12,621 bases of DNA from a virus (lineage: Duplodnaviria; Heunggongvirae; Uroviricota; Caudoviricetes): the IMG/VR virus record IMGVR_UViG_2872180393_000003, positions 1 to 12,621 of that record; one strand, written 5' to 3'. Below, piece by piece: positions 7,248 through 12,621 of this stretch. The notes below the pieces were generated by a model. It made no database searches and was not told the origin of the DNA. It saw nothing but the letters and a program-made list of their open reading frames with translations. The translations under genes were made by a program, and so were the position numbers. Numbering within the stretch: the first letter of the stretch is position 1; each line of letters starts with the position of its first letter.

Positions 7248-7718
7248 TTACGGAGCGATATGAGACGCGCCCGCGTCTTTTTTCATATCGTTTGCACAGT
7301 CACATTCGCGATTTATGGTGGGCTGTGTGGGGGAGCCGAAACCGATAACCATTTCTTTGTTGAAGAGACAAAGCGAGCAGGCCAGTCCGATCGCGGTCCA
7401 ACTGAGCCCCATTTCACGGGATTTTTCGGTAATACCATTCTCCCGATTGCTCCAGCGTTCCATAATCCAGTGGATCCACTCCTCCTGCTTAGGGAAGAGT
7501 AAAAACGGAATGGTCACCGGCAGGCCATAATCAATATTACGCGGGTCCGTTGTCATGCCCCAGCCGATAATGAACTGAGCCGGGTTGGTACGGTAAAACT
7601 GTTTTAGTGCAGGCAATATTTCAGGATTCTGGCGAATGCGCTGTAGGCGTTCCATCCGCCATTCAAAAACCATCTGGTAATCAGGATGTTTAAAATCGAA
7701 GGGGAATGGTAACGGCAT
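7248..7718 (-). pseudogene. phage terminase large subunit, N-terminal fragment only
   Basis: ATG 7718 overlaps the terminase small subunit stop. The N-terminal 125-130 aa look terminase-like (...[13 protein letters not shown]...), but the ORF stops after 156 aa where terminase large subunits are 400 aa or more. The last ~30 codons run through junction sequence containing a hairpin. Confidence 0.65.
7263..7283 (+). terminator. orphan terminator-like hairpin with T6 tail, plus strand
   Basis: AGACGCG-CC-CGCGTCT followed by TTTTTT. There is no plus-strand gene upstream, and it is not terminator-like on the minus strand (A-run precedes the hairpin). Confidence 0.35.
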
Positions 7719-7720
7719 AC

Positions 7721-8278
7721 TTAGCCCATCATTTTTCTATACACCTCTGCGGCCTGCTCAGGCGTTAATTTGGTAATTTCTGTTCTGACTGGTCCTCCGT
7801 CAGCGCCAGTCACTTCATTTTTGACGTTGTCTTTAAACGCCTGAACAGAAACATGACGCCCAAGCAACTCAAGGTTTTTAACCTTATCAGGCCATTTGAT
7901 TTTCTTCAGAAGTGCGGCGCTATCTGCGGATACCATCTCCACGACATCCATTCCTGATAGCGTTGTGCGCCATACCTTCTTAGGCCAGTCTTTAATGGGC
8001 TTTAGCTCACCGTTTTGCAAGAGAATGTCGAGCACATCCATCTGGTCGATTTCAACCAATCTACGAAGAACATAGGCGGCATCTATACCCGTCTGCTCAA
8101 CGCGGGCGGATTTAAGTTCAGCAACGAATTTTTGAACATTAACATTTGCTAATAATCGAGATGCCTGCTCATTGGCGGTCTTCTCGCTGTAGCCCGCCCT
8201 GATAGCTGCCTGTGTGCCGTTCAGATCTTTCAGGTACTCACGGGCAAACAGCTCTTGTTTGTCGGTGAGCTTTGCCAT
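7721..8278 (-). CDS. phage terminase small subunit (P27-type)
   Basis: 185 aa [43 protein letters not shown]..., the N-terminal signature of P27-family small terminases. GGAG lies about 9 nt upstream of the ATG. Confidence 0.85.
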
Positions 8279-8300
8279 TATTTGTGCTCCGTTTATCCGT

Positions 8301-8380
8301 TAAAAGGGATATCAGTTAAGTTATCCCGTGTAGGGTATAAGCCATTATCAAGCCCACCAGTAGATGGGCTTTGTAATGGC
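8301..8380 (-). other. structured intergenic region upstream of terS: compound inverted repeat plus a hairpin with T-run
   Basis: 8341-8380 is GCCATTA-caa-AGCCCA-8 nt-TGGGCT-tga-TAATGGC (7-bp outer and 6-bp inner stems). 8306-8327 is GGGATA-10 nt-TATCCC, followed on the minus strand by TTTT. Confidence 0.4.
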
Positions 8381-8637
8381 TACTTCGCTTTTGCTTCCGC
8401 TCGCTTACGCCGGCGCTCTTCTTTCCTCTCGGCTTTTGCCATGTCCATGAATGTCTGCATGATCGAGTTCCGCATCATGTAGCTAACAAAGTGATGATTG
8501 ACACAGCCGTTGAGGCGCAGCTGCTCGCCAAACTCATCCACCGAGGCCAATGCTTCCATCATGCCCTTCTCGCCTTTCATGAACTCTGAGAAGTCGCGCC
8601 CCGCTCTGGAGGCGCATTCAATGACACGATCACTCAT
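8380..8637 (-). CDS. small basic protein of unknown function, co-transcribed with the KilA-N gene
   Basis: 85 aa with a lysine/arginine-rich C-terminus (KAERKEERRRKRAEAKAK). Its ATG overlaps the KilA-N stop (ATGA). No function recognised. Confidence 0.5.
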   Translation of the reverse strand: MSDRVIECASRAGRDFSEFMKGEKGMMEALASVDEFGEQLRLNGCVNHHFVSYMMRNSIMQTFMDMAKAERKEERRRKRAEAKAK

Positions 8638-9131
8638 CCCGGAAGCCCGGGGATCGTTATCTGCAGCTGGTTAGCCAGGGAGTTAATCTCAGCGACCAAC
8701 ACTGGCTTCGTATAGCGCCATGCCGCCAGCCCTTGTCCACAGAAGTTCGCCATATCTTTTTTCTGATCAAACTCATGACACTTCATATTGAGCTGCGCAC
8801 TTAAGCTGTTGCGATGCTGAAGTTCTCCGGTGAAGTAGTCATCCAGGACTTTATAGGCTGCATATTTAAATCCGGGGTTTAGCCATGCTGCATAATCATA
8901 AGCAACAAACTTCCCGCCATATGTTCCACCGTGTACACCGCGCTCAGTAAAAACCACAGATTCGTGGTTTTTCTCCAGCTCGGCTAAGAACTCTTTGGTC
9001 TGCTTGTTTCGCAGGTAGTGGTACGGAGATTCAGATTCACTTTTACCACTGGCTTTCCACATATCAGTGAGGCAGATCATTCCTGATTCATCAACACGGA
9101 TCGGTGTATTAAAAAGCGTGATTGCTTTCAT
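8634..9131 (-). CDS. KilA-N domain protein
   Basis: 165 aa whose N-terminus (MKAITLFNTPIRVDESGMICLTDMWKASGKSESESPYHYLRNKQTKEFLAEL) looks like a KilA-N/APSES-type DNA-binding domain. Sits between the lysis cassette and terminase, a common cargo position. Confidence 0.65.
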   Translation of the reverse strand: MKAITLFNTPIRVDESGMICLTDMWKASGKSESESPYHYLRNKQTKEFLAELEKNHESVVFTERGVHGGTYGGKFVAYDYAAWLNPGFKYAAYKVLDDYFTGELQHRNSLSAQLNMKCHEFDQKKDMANFCGQGLAAWRYTKPVLVAEINSLANQLQITIPGLPG

Positions 9132-9336
9132 GGCGTCTTTACCTTTTAGAAAGATGAGCCTGTTCGCACAGAAAAGCCGTCCCCGAGATGGTCGCCACCA
9201 TATACGGCAATTCTCAGGCTCAGCTTTCTGAAAGACTCGGGGTTTATATGCGCTGCGATGCGCGGTTTACTGCGGACATATAAAAGCCCCGCAAGTGCGA
9301 GGCTCATTAAATGGACTTTGTGATTTGCAAAAAAAT

Positions 9337-9804
9337 TTATTTCAGGCACTGAGTCCTGATGTACTCCTGAAGCATTCTCAATGCTGTCTGGTCGCTGATG
9401 ATTCCGTCCCGGATACCGAGAACGTTTCGTCCAGCAACTGGAGAGAGTTCGACGGTGGCATCATTGCCCATGCCGGAGGCGCTGGAGGTTTCGGCTGAGG
9501 ATGGCACAGGGCATTTTCCTTTGACGAGCACCCGACCACCATTATCAAGCTTGCGCCGAAGAGCATCATTTTCAGCTTTCGCATTGGCTAACTCCTTCGT
9601 GTATTTAGCATCGAGTGCATCAGCAGCACGCTGGCGCTGCTGCATGTCAGTAATGGTTGCGTTCGCCAGCTTCAGTTCTCTTGCGTTTTTGTCGCGCTGC
9701 TCTTTGTAGGTAATGGCGTTATCACGGTAATGATTAACAGCCCATGACAGGCGGACGATGATGCAGATAACCAGAGCGGAGATAATCGCGGTGACTCTGC
9801 TCAT
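9337..9804 (-). CDS. Rz: Rz (i-spanin)
   Basis: 155 aa [26 protein letters not shown]... with an N-terminal TM segment and a coiled-coil-like body. ATG overlaps the endolysin stop (ATGA). The track ORF from 9816 is over-extended. Confidence 0.8.
9378..9584 (-). CDS. Rz1: Rz1 (o-spanin lipoprotein) embedded in Rz in the +1 frame
   Basis: [21 protein letters not shown]... with a lipobox (VVGC) and a proline-rich mature part ([11 protein letters not shown]), lying wholly inside Rz. Confidence 0.65.
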
Positions 9805-10298
9805 TGCTGCCCCCACAAACAGACTTCACGCTCAATCTCATGACGGGTCATCAGCCCTTTCCATTGCTTACCGCCAGCATATGTCCAGCGACGTAGCTGG
9901 TCACATGCGCCTTTGATATCGCCCTGGTTTATTTTGCGAAGAAGCGTCGATGTTCTGAAATTGCCAGCGCCCACGTTGTAAACGAACGAGTAAAGAGCGC
10001 CGCGCGTTGTTTCCGGTATATCGACTTTGATGTACGGGTTAATTTGTCTGGCGACAGTGGCAAGGTCTTTATTCAGGAGAGCTTTGCATTCTGCTTCGGT
10101 ATACGTTTTACCAGGCATGATGTCTTTTCCGGTGTGTCCGTGACATACAGTCCATACACCAATGATATCTTTGTATGGTATGTAGCTGACACCTTCCAGA
10201 CCATCGTTACCACCTGGGCCAGTGATTAACACAGATGCTATAGCAACAGCCCCGCCACCAATAGCAACTGCAACAGCCTTGCGTAATGATGGCGACAT
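9801..10298 (-). CDS. R: SAR endolysin (phage 21 R-type lysozyme)
   Basis: 165 aa [57 protein letters not shown]...: a glycine/alanine-rich signal-anchor-release segment followed by a lysozyme core. Confidence 0.9.
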
Positions 10299-10513
10299 TA
10301 TTCACCTCTCGCAGCCTTACGCTTGTCTTCTCTTAATTTGAAATACAGATTCGTCAGATAAGTCAGAAGCCCCAGAAGCAGACTTCCCAGCACACCAATC
10401 GCAGCCCACTGTGATGGACTGACCTGATCCAACCACTGCAAAAACCAGTAGCCGGCACTGCCGGCGGAGGTGCCGTAGGCAATGCCCGTTGAAATTTTGT
10501 CCATGGATTTCAT
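10298..10513 (-). CDS. S: class II holin (phage 21 S-type) with dual-start motif
   Basis: 71 aa [71 protein letters not shown]. Two in-frame starts (M1, M4) as in the S21 holin/antiholin pair. GGAGGTGAGG Shine-Dalgarno upstream; the stop overlaps the R start (TAATG). Confidence 0.9.
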
Positions 10514-10629
10514 AGCCTCACCTCCGCAAATAACGGATGGCGTAGTTCTTATATTGGGAAGGGAAAAAAAAGGCCGCAGCGTAACTGTCACTGATGAATT
10601 CAGGATAGCCAGTGGCTACGGCTCAGTTA

Positions 10630-10705
10630 TGGTGCTGGTTAACGGACTTGAACCGCTACCCATTCGCTTACAAGGCGACTGCTCTACCATTAGAGCTAAA
10701 CCAGC
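10630..10705 (-). tRNA. tRNA-Thr (anticodon UGU), 76 nt with encoded CCA
   Basis: Manual cloverleaf: 7/7 acceptor pairs, D stem GCTC/GAGC, anticodon loop CTTGTAA, T arm AGCGG-TTCAAGT-CCGTT, discriminator A plus CCA. One mismatch in the anticodon stem. Confidence 0.7.
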
Positions 10706-10710
10706 ATATT

Positions 10711-10785
10711 TGGCGGGACAGCGTGGACTCGAACCACGATAAGAAGGTTAACAGCCTTCCGTAATGACCTTTATACGACTGACCC
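10711..10785 (-). tRNA. tRNA-Asn-like (anticodon GUU), with mismatches; possibly a pseudo-tRNA
   Basis: Anticodon arm GAAGG-CTGTTAA-CCTTC and T arm CGTGG-TTCGAGT-CCACG are canonical, ending G-CCA, 5 nt upstream of tRNA-Thr. The acceptor stem has one T-T mismatch and the D stem one mismatch. Confidence 0.5.
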
Positions 10786-11045: not shown

Positions 11046-11422
11046 CTAACGTGTGACCGCATTCAAAATGTTGTCTGCGATTGACTCTTCTTTGTGGCAT
11101 TGCACCACCAGAGCGTCATACAGCGGCTTAACAGTGCGTGACCATGTGGGTTGGGTGAGGTTTGGGATTAGCATCGTTACAGCGCGATATGCTGCACTTG
11201 CTGGCATCCTTGAATAGCCGACACCTTTGCATCTTCCGCACTCTTTCTCGACAACTCTCCCCCACTGCTCTGTTTTGGCTATATCAACTGCCAGACCTGT
11301 TCCGTGGCAATCTCTGCATCTTGCGCCCGGCGTCGCGGCACTACGGCAATAATCCGCATAAGCGAATGTTGCGAGCACTTGCAGTACCTTTGCCTTAGTA
11401 TTTCCTTCGAGCTTTGCCACAC
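11046..11422 (-). pseudogene. Q: late antiterminator Q (lambda type), C-terminal ~125 codons only; N-terminus replaced by the IS600 end
   Basis: ...AKLEGNTKAKVLQVLATFAYADYCRSAATPGARCRDCHGTGLAVDIAKTEQWGRVVEKECGRCKGVGYSRMPASAAYRAVTMLIPNLTQPTWSRTVKPLYDALVVQCHKEESIADNILNAVTR matches the lambda Q C-terminal zinc-finger region as I recall it. The frame runs into the IS600 right end at 11423 with only a TTG start inside the IS. Confidence 0.75.
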
Positions 11423-11464
11423 TGAGGTGTACTGGCAATAGCGGACACTACCATTTGTTCTTTT

Positions 11465-12283
11465 TTAAGCAGCCATCTGATGATATTTTTCCCTGAAGGC
11501 TGCCGGGGAGATATTCCCCAGACGAGAGTGACGACGCTGACGATTGTAGAAAATCTCAATGTATTCCCGTATTACTGAGATGGCTTCATCCCGGTTATTA
11601 AAACGATAGTGGCTCAGGCTCTCATTTTTCAGCGTTCCCCAGAAGCTTTCCATCGGAGCGTTGTCGTAACAGTTACCTTTACGCGACATTGATGTTTTCA
11701 GACCAAACTGCTCCTGTATGACCCGGTAATCGTATACGCAGTACTGTGAACCTCGATCAGAGTGGTGGATTAGCCCGGCAGGTGGGCGCTGGCTCCTGAG
11801 CGCCATAAACAGGGCTTTACCTGTCAGCTCTTTTGTCATTCGCTCTCCCATGGCGTAGCCGACAATTTCGCACGTATAAACATCTTTGATGCCAGCGAGG
11901 TACAACCATCCCTCCTGTGTGGCAACATACGTCAGGTCCGCCACCCAGACCTGATTTGGTGCTGTAGGAGCGAACGTCTGGTTCAGCAGATTTGGCGCAA
12001 CTGGCAGATTGTGGTTCGGGTTCGTAGTCGCTCTGAACTTGCGTTTCTGCTTACAGCGTAGCCTTAGCTCCTTACGAAGACGTGCCAGTCGGTCACGACC
12101 AACGATGATGCCATTCTCTGCCAGCTCCGTCTGGAGCCGCCGGGTTCCATATGTTTCGCGAGTGCGGATATGTGCCACCTTAATCTCCAGTTTTAGCCGC
12201 TCATCACTTTGTTTTCTGTCTGAGGGTTCATGCTGTACCCGGTTGTAATAACCGCTCCTGGATACACCAAATACCTGACACAT
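11465..12283 (-). CDS. IS600 OrfB (copy 2; W15R and A183V relative to copy 1)
   Basis: 272-aa ORF identical to copy 1 OrfB except for two substitutions. Confidence 0.9.
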   Translation of the reverse strand: MCQVFGVSRSGYYNRVQHEPSDRKQSDERLKLEIKVAHIRTRETYGTRRLQTELAENGIIVGRDRLARLRKELRLRCKQKRKFRATTNPNHNLPVAPNLLNQTFAPTAPNQVWVADLTYVATQEGWLYLAGIKDVYTCEIVGYAMGERMTKELTGKALFMALRSQRPPAGLIHHSDRGSQYCVYDYRVIQEQFGLKTSMSRKGNCYDNAPMESFWGTLKNESLSHYRFNNRDEAISVIREYIEIFYNRQRRHSRLGNISPAAFREKYHQMAA

Positions 12284-12318
12284 CGCTTCAATGGGAAATT
12301 GTTGTCGCCATTGTTCGA

Positions 12319-12621
12319 TTAACGCGTATTTTTCAGCGACTCCTGTGCAAAATACGCTGTTGCTTTTTTTAATATATCTCGCTCAAGGCGAGCTTCATTT
12401 AACGCCTTACGCAGTTGCAGAATTTCAGATTCCAGTTCAGCCACCGTGCGGGAACCAGGAGTACCGAGCCCTTTTCTGGCGGCGGTAACCCATTGTCCTA
12501 AAGTGCCTTCAGGAAGGGATAATCGGGAAGCGCCTTCACTGATCGAAAGTTGATTTTCAAGAACCGTTCTGACAGCTTCGGCTTTGAACTCTTTAGAGTA
12601 ACGTTGGGTTTTTCTGCTCAT
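12319..12621 (-). CDS. IS600 OrfA (copy 2); start codon is the last triplet of the window
   Basis: 100-aa ORF identical to copy 1 OrfA. The T7 run at 12364-12370 is the complement of the frameshift site. Confidence 0.9.
   Translation of the reverse strand: MSRKTQRYSKEFKAEAVRTVLENQLSISEGASRLSLPEGTLGQWVTAARKGLGTPGSRTVAELESEILQLRKALNEARLERDILKKATAYFAQESLKNTR

Follow-up and report, generated by a model that had tools for sequence, protein, structure and literature searches.

The window analysed here, that is the whole 12,621-nucleotide (nt) stretch of the IMG/VR record IMGVR_UViG_2872180393_000003, contains a rearranged lambdoid prophage remnant. On its minus strand, between the spanin genes Rz/Rz1 (9337-9816) and terS (7721-8278), it carries a two-gene unit that is the subject of this report. 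In the direction of transcription this unit is composed of a terminator-like hairpin just after Rz (9284-9305), a pseudoknotted 5' leader of about 135 nt (9132-9274), a gene for a KilA-N/ORF11CD3 protein of 165 amino acids (aa; 8634-9131), an overlapping gene for a partner protein of 85 aa (8380-8637) and a two-tier 3' hairpin (8340-8381). A first-pass annotation, made without database searches, had singled out the segment 8301-9131 as a KilA-N gene and a small partner gene carried as accessory cargo between the spanins and terS; the position and the accessory character were both borne out, while the leader and the post-Rz hairpin lie upstream of that segment. In enterobacterial lambdoid phages the pair is carried in the late operon as a self-contained cargo cassette that is exchanged horizontally, and the leader covers the ribosome-binding site (RBS) of the cassette.

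The first gene of the cassette (start codon 9131-9129) corresponds to hkbK of phage HK620, with 99.4% aa identity. Membership of a Pfam family was accepted when the profile score exceeded the curated gathering score. By this measure a KilA-N domain was recognised: residues 7-101 matched PF04383 (profile positions 6-106 of 107) at E 6.3e-16, with a score of 58.6 bits where 23.8 are required. The remainder of the protein is accounted for by ORF11CD3 (PF10549), whose whole 54-position profile was matched by residues 109-161 at E 6.8e-12 (45.9 bits; gathering score 25). The protein also matched phrog_129/phrog_10441. A search of PDB sequences gave no match for either this protein or its partner.

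The second gene is equivalent to hkbL of HK620 (98.5% aa identity) and to HK97p61. Its product belongs to no Pfam family and was assigned to phrog_875 over its entire length (residues 1-85 of 85, E 6.1e-54). The bases 8634-8637 are common to both genes and read ATGA on the coding strand, the start codon of the partner lying on the stop codon of the KilA-N gene. Of 90 loci scored, about 82 retain this junction, from which the first-pass annotation had derived translational coupling. Both open reading frames (ORFs) are real genes under strong purifying selection, with a median ratio of nonsynonymous to synonymous substitution rates (dN/dS) of 0.066 for the KilA-N gene (427 allele pairs) and 0.096 for the partner gene (37 allele pairs). 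An AlphaFold2 model of the partner (mean predicted local distance difference test score, pLDDT, 92.8) consists of three helices (residues 3-20, 26-42 and 48-84), the last of which carries an Arg/Lys-rich C-terminal tail, KEERRRKRAEAKAK. The description of the partner as a small basic protein held for this tail, the net charge calculated from the sequence being about +6 for residues 68-85, and not for the body of the protein, which is slightly acidic. The tail may be likened to the arginine-rich motifs with which lambda N and other proteins bind RNA. Among the positions without variation are E7, C8, R11, G13, R14, D15, F16, S17 and C45, and N47, H48 and H49 are nearly invariant. A Foldseek comparison of the model with PDB returned only generic helical bundles (best E 1.7).

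The partner family is narrow. A profile search of 1.84 billion representatives yielded 20 clusters at 50% identity, which comprised the same small partner family and one T5orf172 fusion, and its range is restricted to the Enterobacterales. P0132, a distant member of 164 aa, combines a partner-like domain with a T5orf172/MUG113 (GIY-YIG-like) domain. The latter is another module of the Bro network, and the fusion would count the fold of the partner as one of the modules that are shuffled in this network. P0001 is a natural frameshift fusion and holds only part of ORF11CD3.

All 92 partner-encoding loci that were fetched possessed a KilA-N gene directly upstream of the partner gene. These KilA-N genes are of two types, one encoding the 165-aa KilA-N+ORF11CD3 protein with the ATGA junction and the other a 242-aa KilA-N+P63C protein (HK97 gp73) with a TGATCATG junction. 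The KilA-N domains of the two types are only 22% identical, yet they are followed by near-identical partner alleles. Because the Rha proteins of other phages share ORF11CD3 and are encoded without a partner, it is the KilA-N domain and not ORF11CD3 that the partner tracks; in the loci examined it was never seen beside Rha. Among 50,697 phage records, only 56 contain a gene for the partner. The cassette was present in Shiga toxin (Stx)-converting phages and in Salmonella phages, and it occurred with three unrelated terminase types (P22-like, HK97-like and lambda-like). In HK97-like prophages it accompanies a P27-type terS plus HNH, lambda-like prophages carry it beside a different terminase, and in the Klebsiella phage vB_Kpn_RAH1 it lies between the major-tail and tape-measure genes. 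The variety of these phages and the small share of records with a partner show that the pair is accessory and mobile rather than core. An odd case is the enterobacterial-type cassette of vB_Apl-pPE4, a phage listed for Actinobacillus.

Occupancy of the slot between Rz and the packaging genes varies as well: it is filled by rha in P22, phi80 and Stx2a phages and by bor, on the opposite strand, in 933W. At every locus the cassette is co-oriented with the late operon. The points where homology between phages breaks are the terminator-like hairpin, position 8622 near the beginning of the partner gene, and the 3' hairpin. The G+C content of the cassette (0.44-0.55, with a flat profile) is not distinct from that of its flanks. 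In one locus (L002, 5039-5573) a RelE/ParE-ParD pair lies between Rz and the cassette.

The occupant of the same slot in P22 and Stx2a phages, Rha, is composed of an N-terminal Phage_pRha domain (E 1.7e-22 and 4.6e-26, respectively) and a C-terminal ORF11CD3. The C-terminal 68 aa of the window protein could be aligned to the C-terminus of P22 Rha with 34% identity (E 3e-8) through the terminal IPGL. The similarity extends to the surroundings: rha of P22 (orf201), phi80 and Stx2a phages shares with the KilA-N gene the slot after Rz and before the packaging genes, an upstream terminator-like hairpin and a structured leader, and the proteins are of similar size (172-183 aa for Rha, 165 aa here). 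On the other hand, Rha has Phage_pRha in the place of KilA-N and lacks the 85-aa partner gene. Judged by its domains, the window protein is a relative of Rha in which the N-terminal DNA-binding domain has been exchanged. By slot, leader and C-terminal domain it may be called a Rha analogue; it is not a member of the Rha family, because Phage_pRha (PF09669) gave no match in it at E<=0.01. An exchange of this kind has been described for the Bro network, a domain-shuffling set to which KilA-N, ORF11CD3 and P22_AR_N belong (PMC10111431).

In its account of rha, PMC4936722 states that the gene is under control dependent on integration host factor (IHF) and, with reference to Mozola and Friedman (1985) and to Henthorn and Friedman (1995), that Rha is detrimental to lytic growth when IHF is missing. 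The phi80 record carries the note 'DNA synthesis inhibition in IHF- hosts'. The ORF11CD3 proteins, namely the window protein (8634-8660) and Rha of P22 and Stx2a phages, end in Q-(I/T)-x-(I/L)-P-G-(L/F), and a terminal Q-x-x-I-P-G-L is common to the window protein and Rha. The terminal Q-I-x-I-P-G-L of the window protein presumably resembles beta-clamp-binding peptides. If true, this likeness would fit the inhibition of DNA synthesis reported for Rha.

The region between the post-Rz hairpin and the start codon of the KilA-N gene (9132-9274) forms a leader RNA with six helices, all of which are backed by covariation. A short 5' stem, H0 (9263-9260 paired with 9253-9250), contains in its loop the sequence K (9258-9254). 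The long basal helix B is formed by B5 (9234-9215) and B3 (9162-9143), and B3 covers the Shine-Dalgarno sequence AAAGG. It encloses helix C (C5 9208-9205, C3 9179-9176) and the D hairpin (9201-9188). Helix A-A' (A 9242-9236, A' 9187-9181) and helix K-K' (K' 9168-9164, just 5' of B3) are both pseudoknots, because each of them crosses helices B and C. A covariance model of the leader (R1) scored 165.7 bits at 9129-9274, its sole sense-strand match in the window.

At least 12 sequence variants of the leader keep the same helices by means of different sequences, the length of helix B being 18-20 bp. MAFFT alignments misplaced the register of helices A, C, D and K; covariance-model alignments were therefore used. 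In these, 94.9% of the cells of the nested helices H0, B, C and D were paired and 27 of 30 pairs showed compensatory changes, a result that was equalled by none of 500 shuffles; when the helices were slid as a control the paired share dropped to 27-53%. A second model with K-K', A-A' and D gave 90.2% paired cells, compensatory changes in 12 of 15 pairs and a covariation score of 0.446 as compared with 0.186 in shuffles (0/500). Because these alignments had been fitted to the structures, an alignment-free permutation test was also run, in which the energies of cognate and non-cognate duplexes are compared and which is free of that bias. Cognate duplexes reached -6.9 kcal/mol for K-K' and -12.0 kcal/mol for A-A' against -3.2 and -6.4 kcal/mol for non-cognate ones, and none of 100,000 permutations attained the cognate mean.

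None of the 12 variants leaves the Shine-Dalgarno sequence unpaired: each pairs it with the 3' end of helix B, again through different sequences. The commonest variant does so by an extra insertion that matches its own, different Shine-Dalgarno sequence; the B-type insertion ACCTGC, for example, pairs with its own GTAGGT. When the nested fold was compared with one containing only A-A' and K-K', it was favoured by 5-25 kcal/mol in 11 of the 12 variants and was slightly less stable in L089. A balanced two-state switch was rejected on these values, and from the energies a single compact pseudoknotted fold is favoured. No Rfam 15 family matched 8250-9360 better than E 1.2 or 17 bits, values that fall well short of the gathering scores. 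Ribozyme topologies (HDV-like, pistol and others), compared by eye, were likewise discarded, because neither helix C nor the K pairing upstream can be reconciled with them and the Rfam models were not matched. The leader also contains invariant unpaired positions. It is apparently an undescribed RNA element.

The same leader is found in front of other genes. The type present in the window is 92-93% identical to the leaders of the rha genes in phiKp_30, JEP4, SF3 and g341c and 86% identical to that in phi80. R1 matched upstream of rha in phi80 with 153 bits and in P22 with 61.9 bits, and a copy also precedes rha of Stx2a phages. Further copies precede the 933W-type 'ant' gene (P22_AR_N+ORF11CD3), which is located between R and Rz, and HNH_3+AP2 endonuclease genes sited after Q or Rz; others front a TerB-like gene, phi80 gp49 and a short ORF. 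In total at least five unrelated cargo gene families have the leader in common. Every copy is preceded by a terminator-like hairpin and has the start codon at its end, and two or three copies may occur within one phage. The TerB-like gene and phi80 gp49 are other late-region cargo with a copy of the leader (L097, 456-1012; L094, 4130-4979). The leader model corrects the annotated start codons of rha in two phages. In P22 the annotated start (39575) lies inside the leader (L095, 39497-39646) and the start predicted by the model is 23 codons downstream in frame; in phi80 the annotated start (locus position 2638) likewise falls inside the leader (L094, 2536-2676), with the model start 12 codons downstream in frame.

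The signals that flank the cassette are hairpins. The one just after Rz (9284-9305, minus strand), GAGCCTCGCACTTGCGGGGCTT plus TTATATGT, was called by a consensus scan as a terminator-like structure of 9 pairs, with G-C in 6. Alignments to other phages begin or are interrupted at 9289-9304, the Klebsiella copy beginning at 9291, and this hairpin is the left boundary of the mobile cassette. A consensus scan of 7600-9900 revealed no sigma-70-like promoter on the minus strand, and inspection of the leader variants did not bring to light a -35/-10 pair that they conserve.

On the other side, the compound inverted repeat noticed in the first-pass annotation proved to be 42 nt long (8340-8381, minus strand). 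It starts within the stop codon of the partner gene and consists of 8 bp, a 2x2 internal loop, 9 bp and a tetraloop; no U-tract follows. The 107-nt stretch that includes it folds with -36.6 kcal/mol as compared with -19.0 ± 3.1 kcal/mol for shuffled sequences (z -5.8; 0/200 as good). A hairpin is located 3' of the partner gene in nearly all allele classes, and its variants show G.U wobbles on the mRNA strand as well as a compensatory change from A-U to G-C in L090. Homology breaks at 8343 within this hairpin and resumes at 8377-8401. Many IMG/VR contigs as well as HK620, HK97 and HK022 have two related, or half-related, hairpin copies with 160-790 bp of additional DNA between them (160-220 bp in the three named phages). 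The window lacks such DNA and, like about 40 other loci, possesses a single merged hairpin. The extra DNA (HK620, L001 4065-4352; L004, L007, L009, L025) sometimes adds an ORF and resembles an array of small cassettes punctuated by hairpins.

The hairpin with T-run claimed to lie just upstream of terS does exist, as GGGATA (8327-8322) paired with TATCCC (8311-8306) and followed by TTTT (8305-8302). With 6 bp and a 10-nt loop it is weak, it was not called by the terminator scan, and it is part of a shared junction segment rather than of the cassette. This segment (8279-8339, minus strand) is composed of TTATACCCTACAC, the weak hairpin, the T-run, AACGGATAAACGGAGC and the RBS of terS (ATG 8278); in HK620, HK97 and HK022 it precedes hkbM-like genes instead of terS. 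The downstream hairpins thus look like slot punctuation and recombination points, perhaps also 3' stabilisers, rather than a dedicated terminator.

How might these elements work together? We favour, with a probability of roughly 0.6, the interpretation that the unit is a late-only, translationally throttled cargo cassette for a Rha-like DNA-binding protein, whose biochemical function we infer. Since a terminator lies upstream and no promoter-like site was found, transcription of the cassette would depend on Q-modified, terminator-resistant polymerase and be confined to late lytic growth. The basal helix of the leader would then hold the Shine-Dalgarno sequence paired, so that a DNA-binding protein with potential for harm is translated at a throttled rate or under a gate. 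Ribosomes ending the KilA-N gene could restart at the overlapping AUG, and in this way synthesis of the partner would be tied to that of the KilA-N protein. Similar to Rha, the KilA-N protein may act as a DNA-binding protein that disturbs the replication or transcription of competing elements or of the host. The partner is probably a cofactor or moderator specific for KilA-N, because it is found with two otherwise unrelated KilA-N proteins and never with Rha, Ant or HNH cargo.

A number of points weigh against this interpretation. DNA binding, toxicity and contact between the two proteins are steps that we infer. The promoter scan was a crude consensus search; a weak or non-sigma-70 promoter, and hence expression in the lysogen, would escape it. 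In vB_Apl-pPE4 (L097, 2465-3070) the KilA-N gene is intact and its product 99.4% identical, with the partner shortened to 20 codons by a recombination joint, which indicates that the partner is dispensable at least in this phage. As to the leader, the covariance-model alignments were fitted to the structures, so the paired percentages given above are inflated; folding energies fail to separate the sense from the antisense strand, and G.U pairs exceed A.C appositions by only 56 to 28. The leader could also be more than a passive throttle, two pseudoknots being more than the masking of an RBS needs. Finally, the cassette is probably silent in the window, because the prophage there is a rearranged remnant.

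The last point but one leads to the alternatives, of which the first concerns the leader alone. It is possible, and we put it forward tentatively, that the leader serves as an RNase III processing site, as the lambda N leader does, or as a switch that opens the RBS on sensing a ligand or a protein. Helix B is a duplex of 18-20 bp that ends at the Shine-Dalgarno sequence, and the two covarying pseudoknots together with the invariant unpaired positions point to a compact fold beyond the needs of masking; the IHF-dependent control mentioned for rha in PMC4936722 would fit as well. However, with the nested fold ahead in 11 of 12 variants there are no obvious balanced states, and no riboswitch or ribozyme family in Rfam is similar. 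Rather doubtful in our view is a broader proposition, according to which the leader would represent a new class of double-pseudoknotted regulatory RNA, a sensor (of a metabolite, IHF or RNase III) or catalytic, gating a pool of interchangeable, potentially harmful cargo (rha, ant, kilA-N, HNH-AP2 and other genes) in the late operons of lambdoid phages of enterobacteria, Shiga-toxin phages among them, while the 85-aa protein would add to the Bro network a new partner domain specific for KilA-N. As regards the cargo, the exchange of the cassette might be understood as selfish, homing-type behaviour, in which the cassette and its rha, ant and HNH-AP2 relatives persist by spreading between phage genomes instead of by aiding the phage, and the leader and terminator limit the harm to the carrier. 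Bona fide HNH_3+AP2 endonuclease genes do carry the same leader, positions and phage types vary and homology boundaries are sharp, several leader-fronted cargo genes may share one phage, and P0132 joins a partner-like domain to a GIY-YIG-like one. We nevertheless consider this unlikely: no nuclease motif was recognisable in KilA-N, ORF11CD3 or the partner protein with Pfam and phrog profiles, homologous recombination at the conserved leader and hairpins explains the exchange equally well, and purifying selection indicates that the proteins matter, although selfish elements need proteins too.

The remaining explanations assign the pair a role in the lysogen or against its repressor. An antirepressor pair, with the KilA-N/ORF11CD3 protein inactivating the repressor of its own or a co-resident prophage, as P22 Ant and the Gifsy antirepressors do, and the small protein as modulator, is suggested by the common membership of KilA-N, ORF11CD3 and P22_AR_N in the Bro network (PMC10111431), by the same leader on 933W 'ant' and by homologues that bear database names such as 'antirepressor'. 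Those names are annotation by similarity, though, and only ORF11CD3 is common to the window protein and 933W 'ant'; the repressor-binding domain ANT/KilAC was not found with Pfam, nor were P22_AR_N and P22_AR_C. Late-only expression behind a terminator would be an odd timing for the removal of a repressor, and what is known of Rha, to which the protein is closest among characterised relatives in slot and C-terminal domain, is an inhibition of growth rather than derepression. Such a function therefore seems improbable. More improbable still is a defence or toxin-antitoxin module that is expressed from the lysogen and excludes phages, with a KilA-N effector comparable to BstA or P1 KilA and the small gene as antidote. 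Two overlapping genes might be read in this sense, P1 KilA can be aligned to residues 11-127 of the 165-aa protein with 30% identity, the latter matches the defence candidate PDC-S22 of PADLOC-DB v2 (33 bits, E 6.8e-9), the KilA-N domain being what the two have in common, and a RelE/ParE-ParD pair is among the cargo of the same region. Yet neither protein matched the model of a validated system in PADLOC-DB v2, and the match of the partner to QatB (PADLOC, E 0.019) is at noise level. The features of type II toxin-antitoxin systems were missing: no toxin or antitoxin family was detected in either protein (Pfam, NCBIfam, PADLOC) and the consensus scan gave no promoter-like site, with a terminator directly upstream instead. 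The invariable co-orientation with the late operon, the isolated phage in which an intact KilA-N gene stands beside a truncated partner, and the near-identical partners of 22%-identical KilA-N domains, which show that the partner does not co-vary with the type of KilA-N, all speak against such a module.

Compared with known systems, HK620 hkbK-hkbL are the same two genes as those of the window. HK97 gp73-HK97p61 shares the leader, the partner gene and the 3' hairpin and differs in its first gene (KilA-N+P63C) and in the junction. P1 KilA and BstA have the KilA-N domain in common with the window protein, whereas their C-terminal domains, genomic positions and regulation are different; BstA, of about 300 aa, is encoded beside the immunity region under its own promoter and has an internal anti-BstA DNA element. 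Among phage leaders that mask an RBS, the lambda N leader contains an RNase III site and a hairpin sequesters the RBS of the homing endonuclease gene mobE. Both resemble the leader described here in having a stable helix with the Shine-Dalgarno sequence in its 3' strand and a gene product that is harmful or timed; the window leader differs by its six helices and two pseudoknots, its association with at least five cargo families and the lack of an Rfam family. Like the morons of HK97 and HK022, the cassette is accessory and mobile and has hairpins at its borders, and with the variable occupancy of its slot it may be viewed as DNA added between genes that are neighbours in related phages. As differences, the crude scan found no promoter in it, the T-run hairpin called by the scan lies upstream of it while the strong hairpin downstream has no U-tract, and its base composition is not distinct.

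The KilA-N and partner genes are already in the databases as hypothetical or KilA-N proteins. In the literature we found no functional study of the gene pair or the leader and no published function for hkbK-hkbL or HK97 gp73-HK97p61. New, as far as we could find, are the link to Rha, the KilA-N-specific partner, the anatomy of the cassette and above all the shared pseudoknotted leader. Genes of the Bro network (rha, ant, kilA-N and others) are among the commonest unexplained genes of temperate phages, including Shiga-toxin phages. What had been 'hypothetical proteins' becomes a testable regulatory unit, with a domain-swapped Rha relative, a partner that tracks KilA-N and a shared leader, and the leader offers a handle on the old observation of IHF control over rha. 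If it were a sensor, a phage-specific class of riboregulators would be present in hundreds of sequenced phages.

The prophage remnant around the cassette is inserted in mlrA, of which a truncated copy (1-648) adjoins a split integrase gene (723-1671). Two mutually inverted copies of an IS3-family element are present, at 1981-3137 on the plus and at 11465-12621 on the minus strand. Early genes (DnaB-like helicase, NinB, Dam) are located on the plus strand and opposed by the late region from Q to the truncated terL on the minus strand. The opposed regions indicate inversion and deletion of the prophage, and the arrangement was absent from all complete E. coli genomes searched. The late region comprises Q (11046-11438), tRNA-Thr(TGT) and tRNA-Asn(GTT) (10630-10785), the genes for holin (10298-10591) and lysozyme (9801-10298), Rz (9337-9816) with the embedded Rz1 (9378-9584), terS (Terminase_2, E 3.6e-38) and terL, cut to 156 codons (7248-7718). 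The tRNA genes between Q and the holin gene occupy the position where Stx phages keep tRNAs and toxin genes; a toxin gene is absent here. Abutting the truncated terL, the plus strand at 7194-7283 matched isrK in Rfam with 70.6 bits (gathering score 50) and c4-a1b1 with 45.3 bits, just under the gathering score of 46.7. This looks like what is left of an antisense immunity or antirepressor module of the c4/IsrK type after the loss of the genes downstream. At the junction of the early and late segments (6498-7206, minus strand), a protein of the Gp49 family (HigB/RelE-like, E 1.4e-25) is encoded overlapping an HTH_3 protein, likely as a toxin-antitoxin pair.

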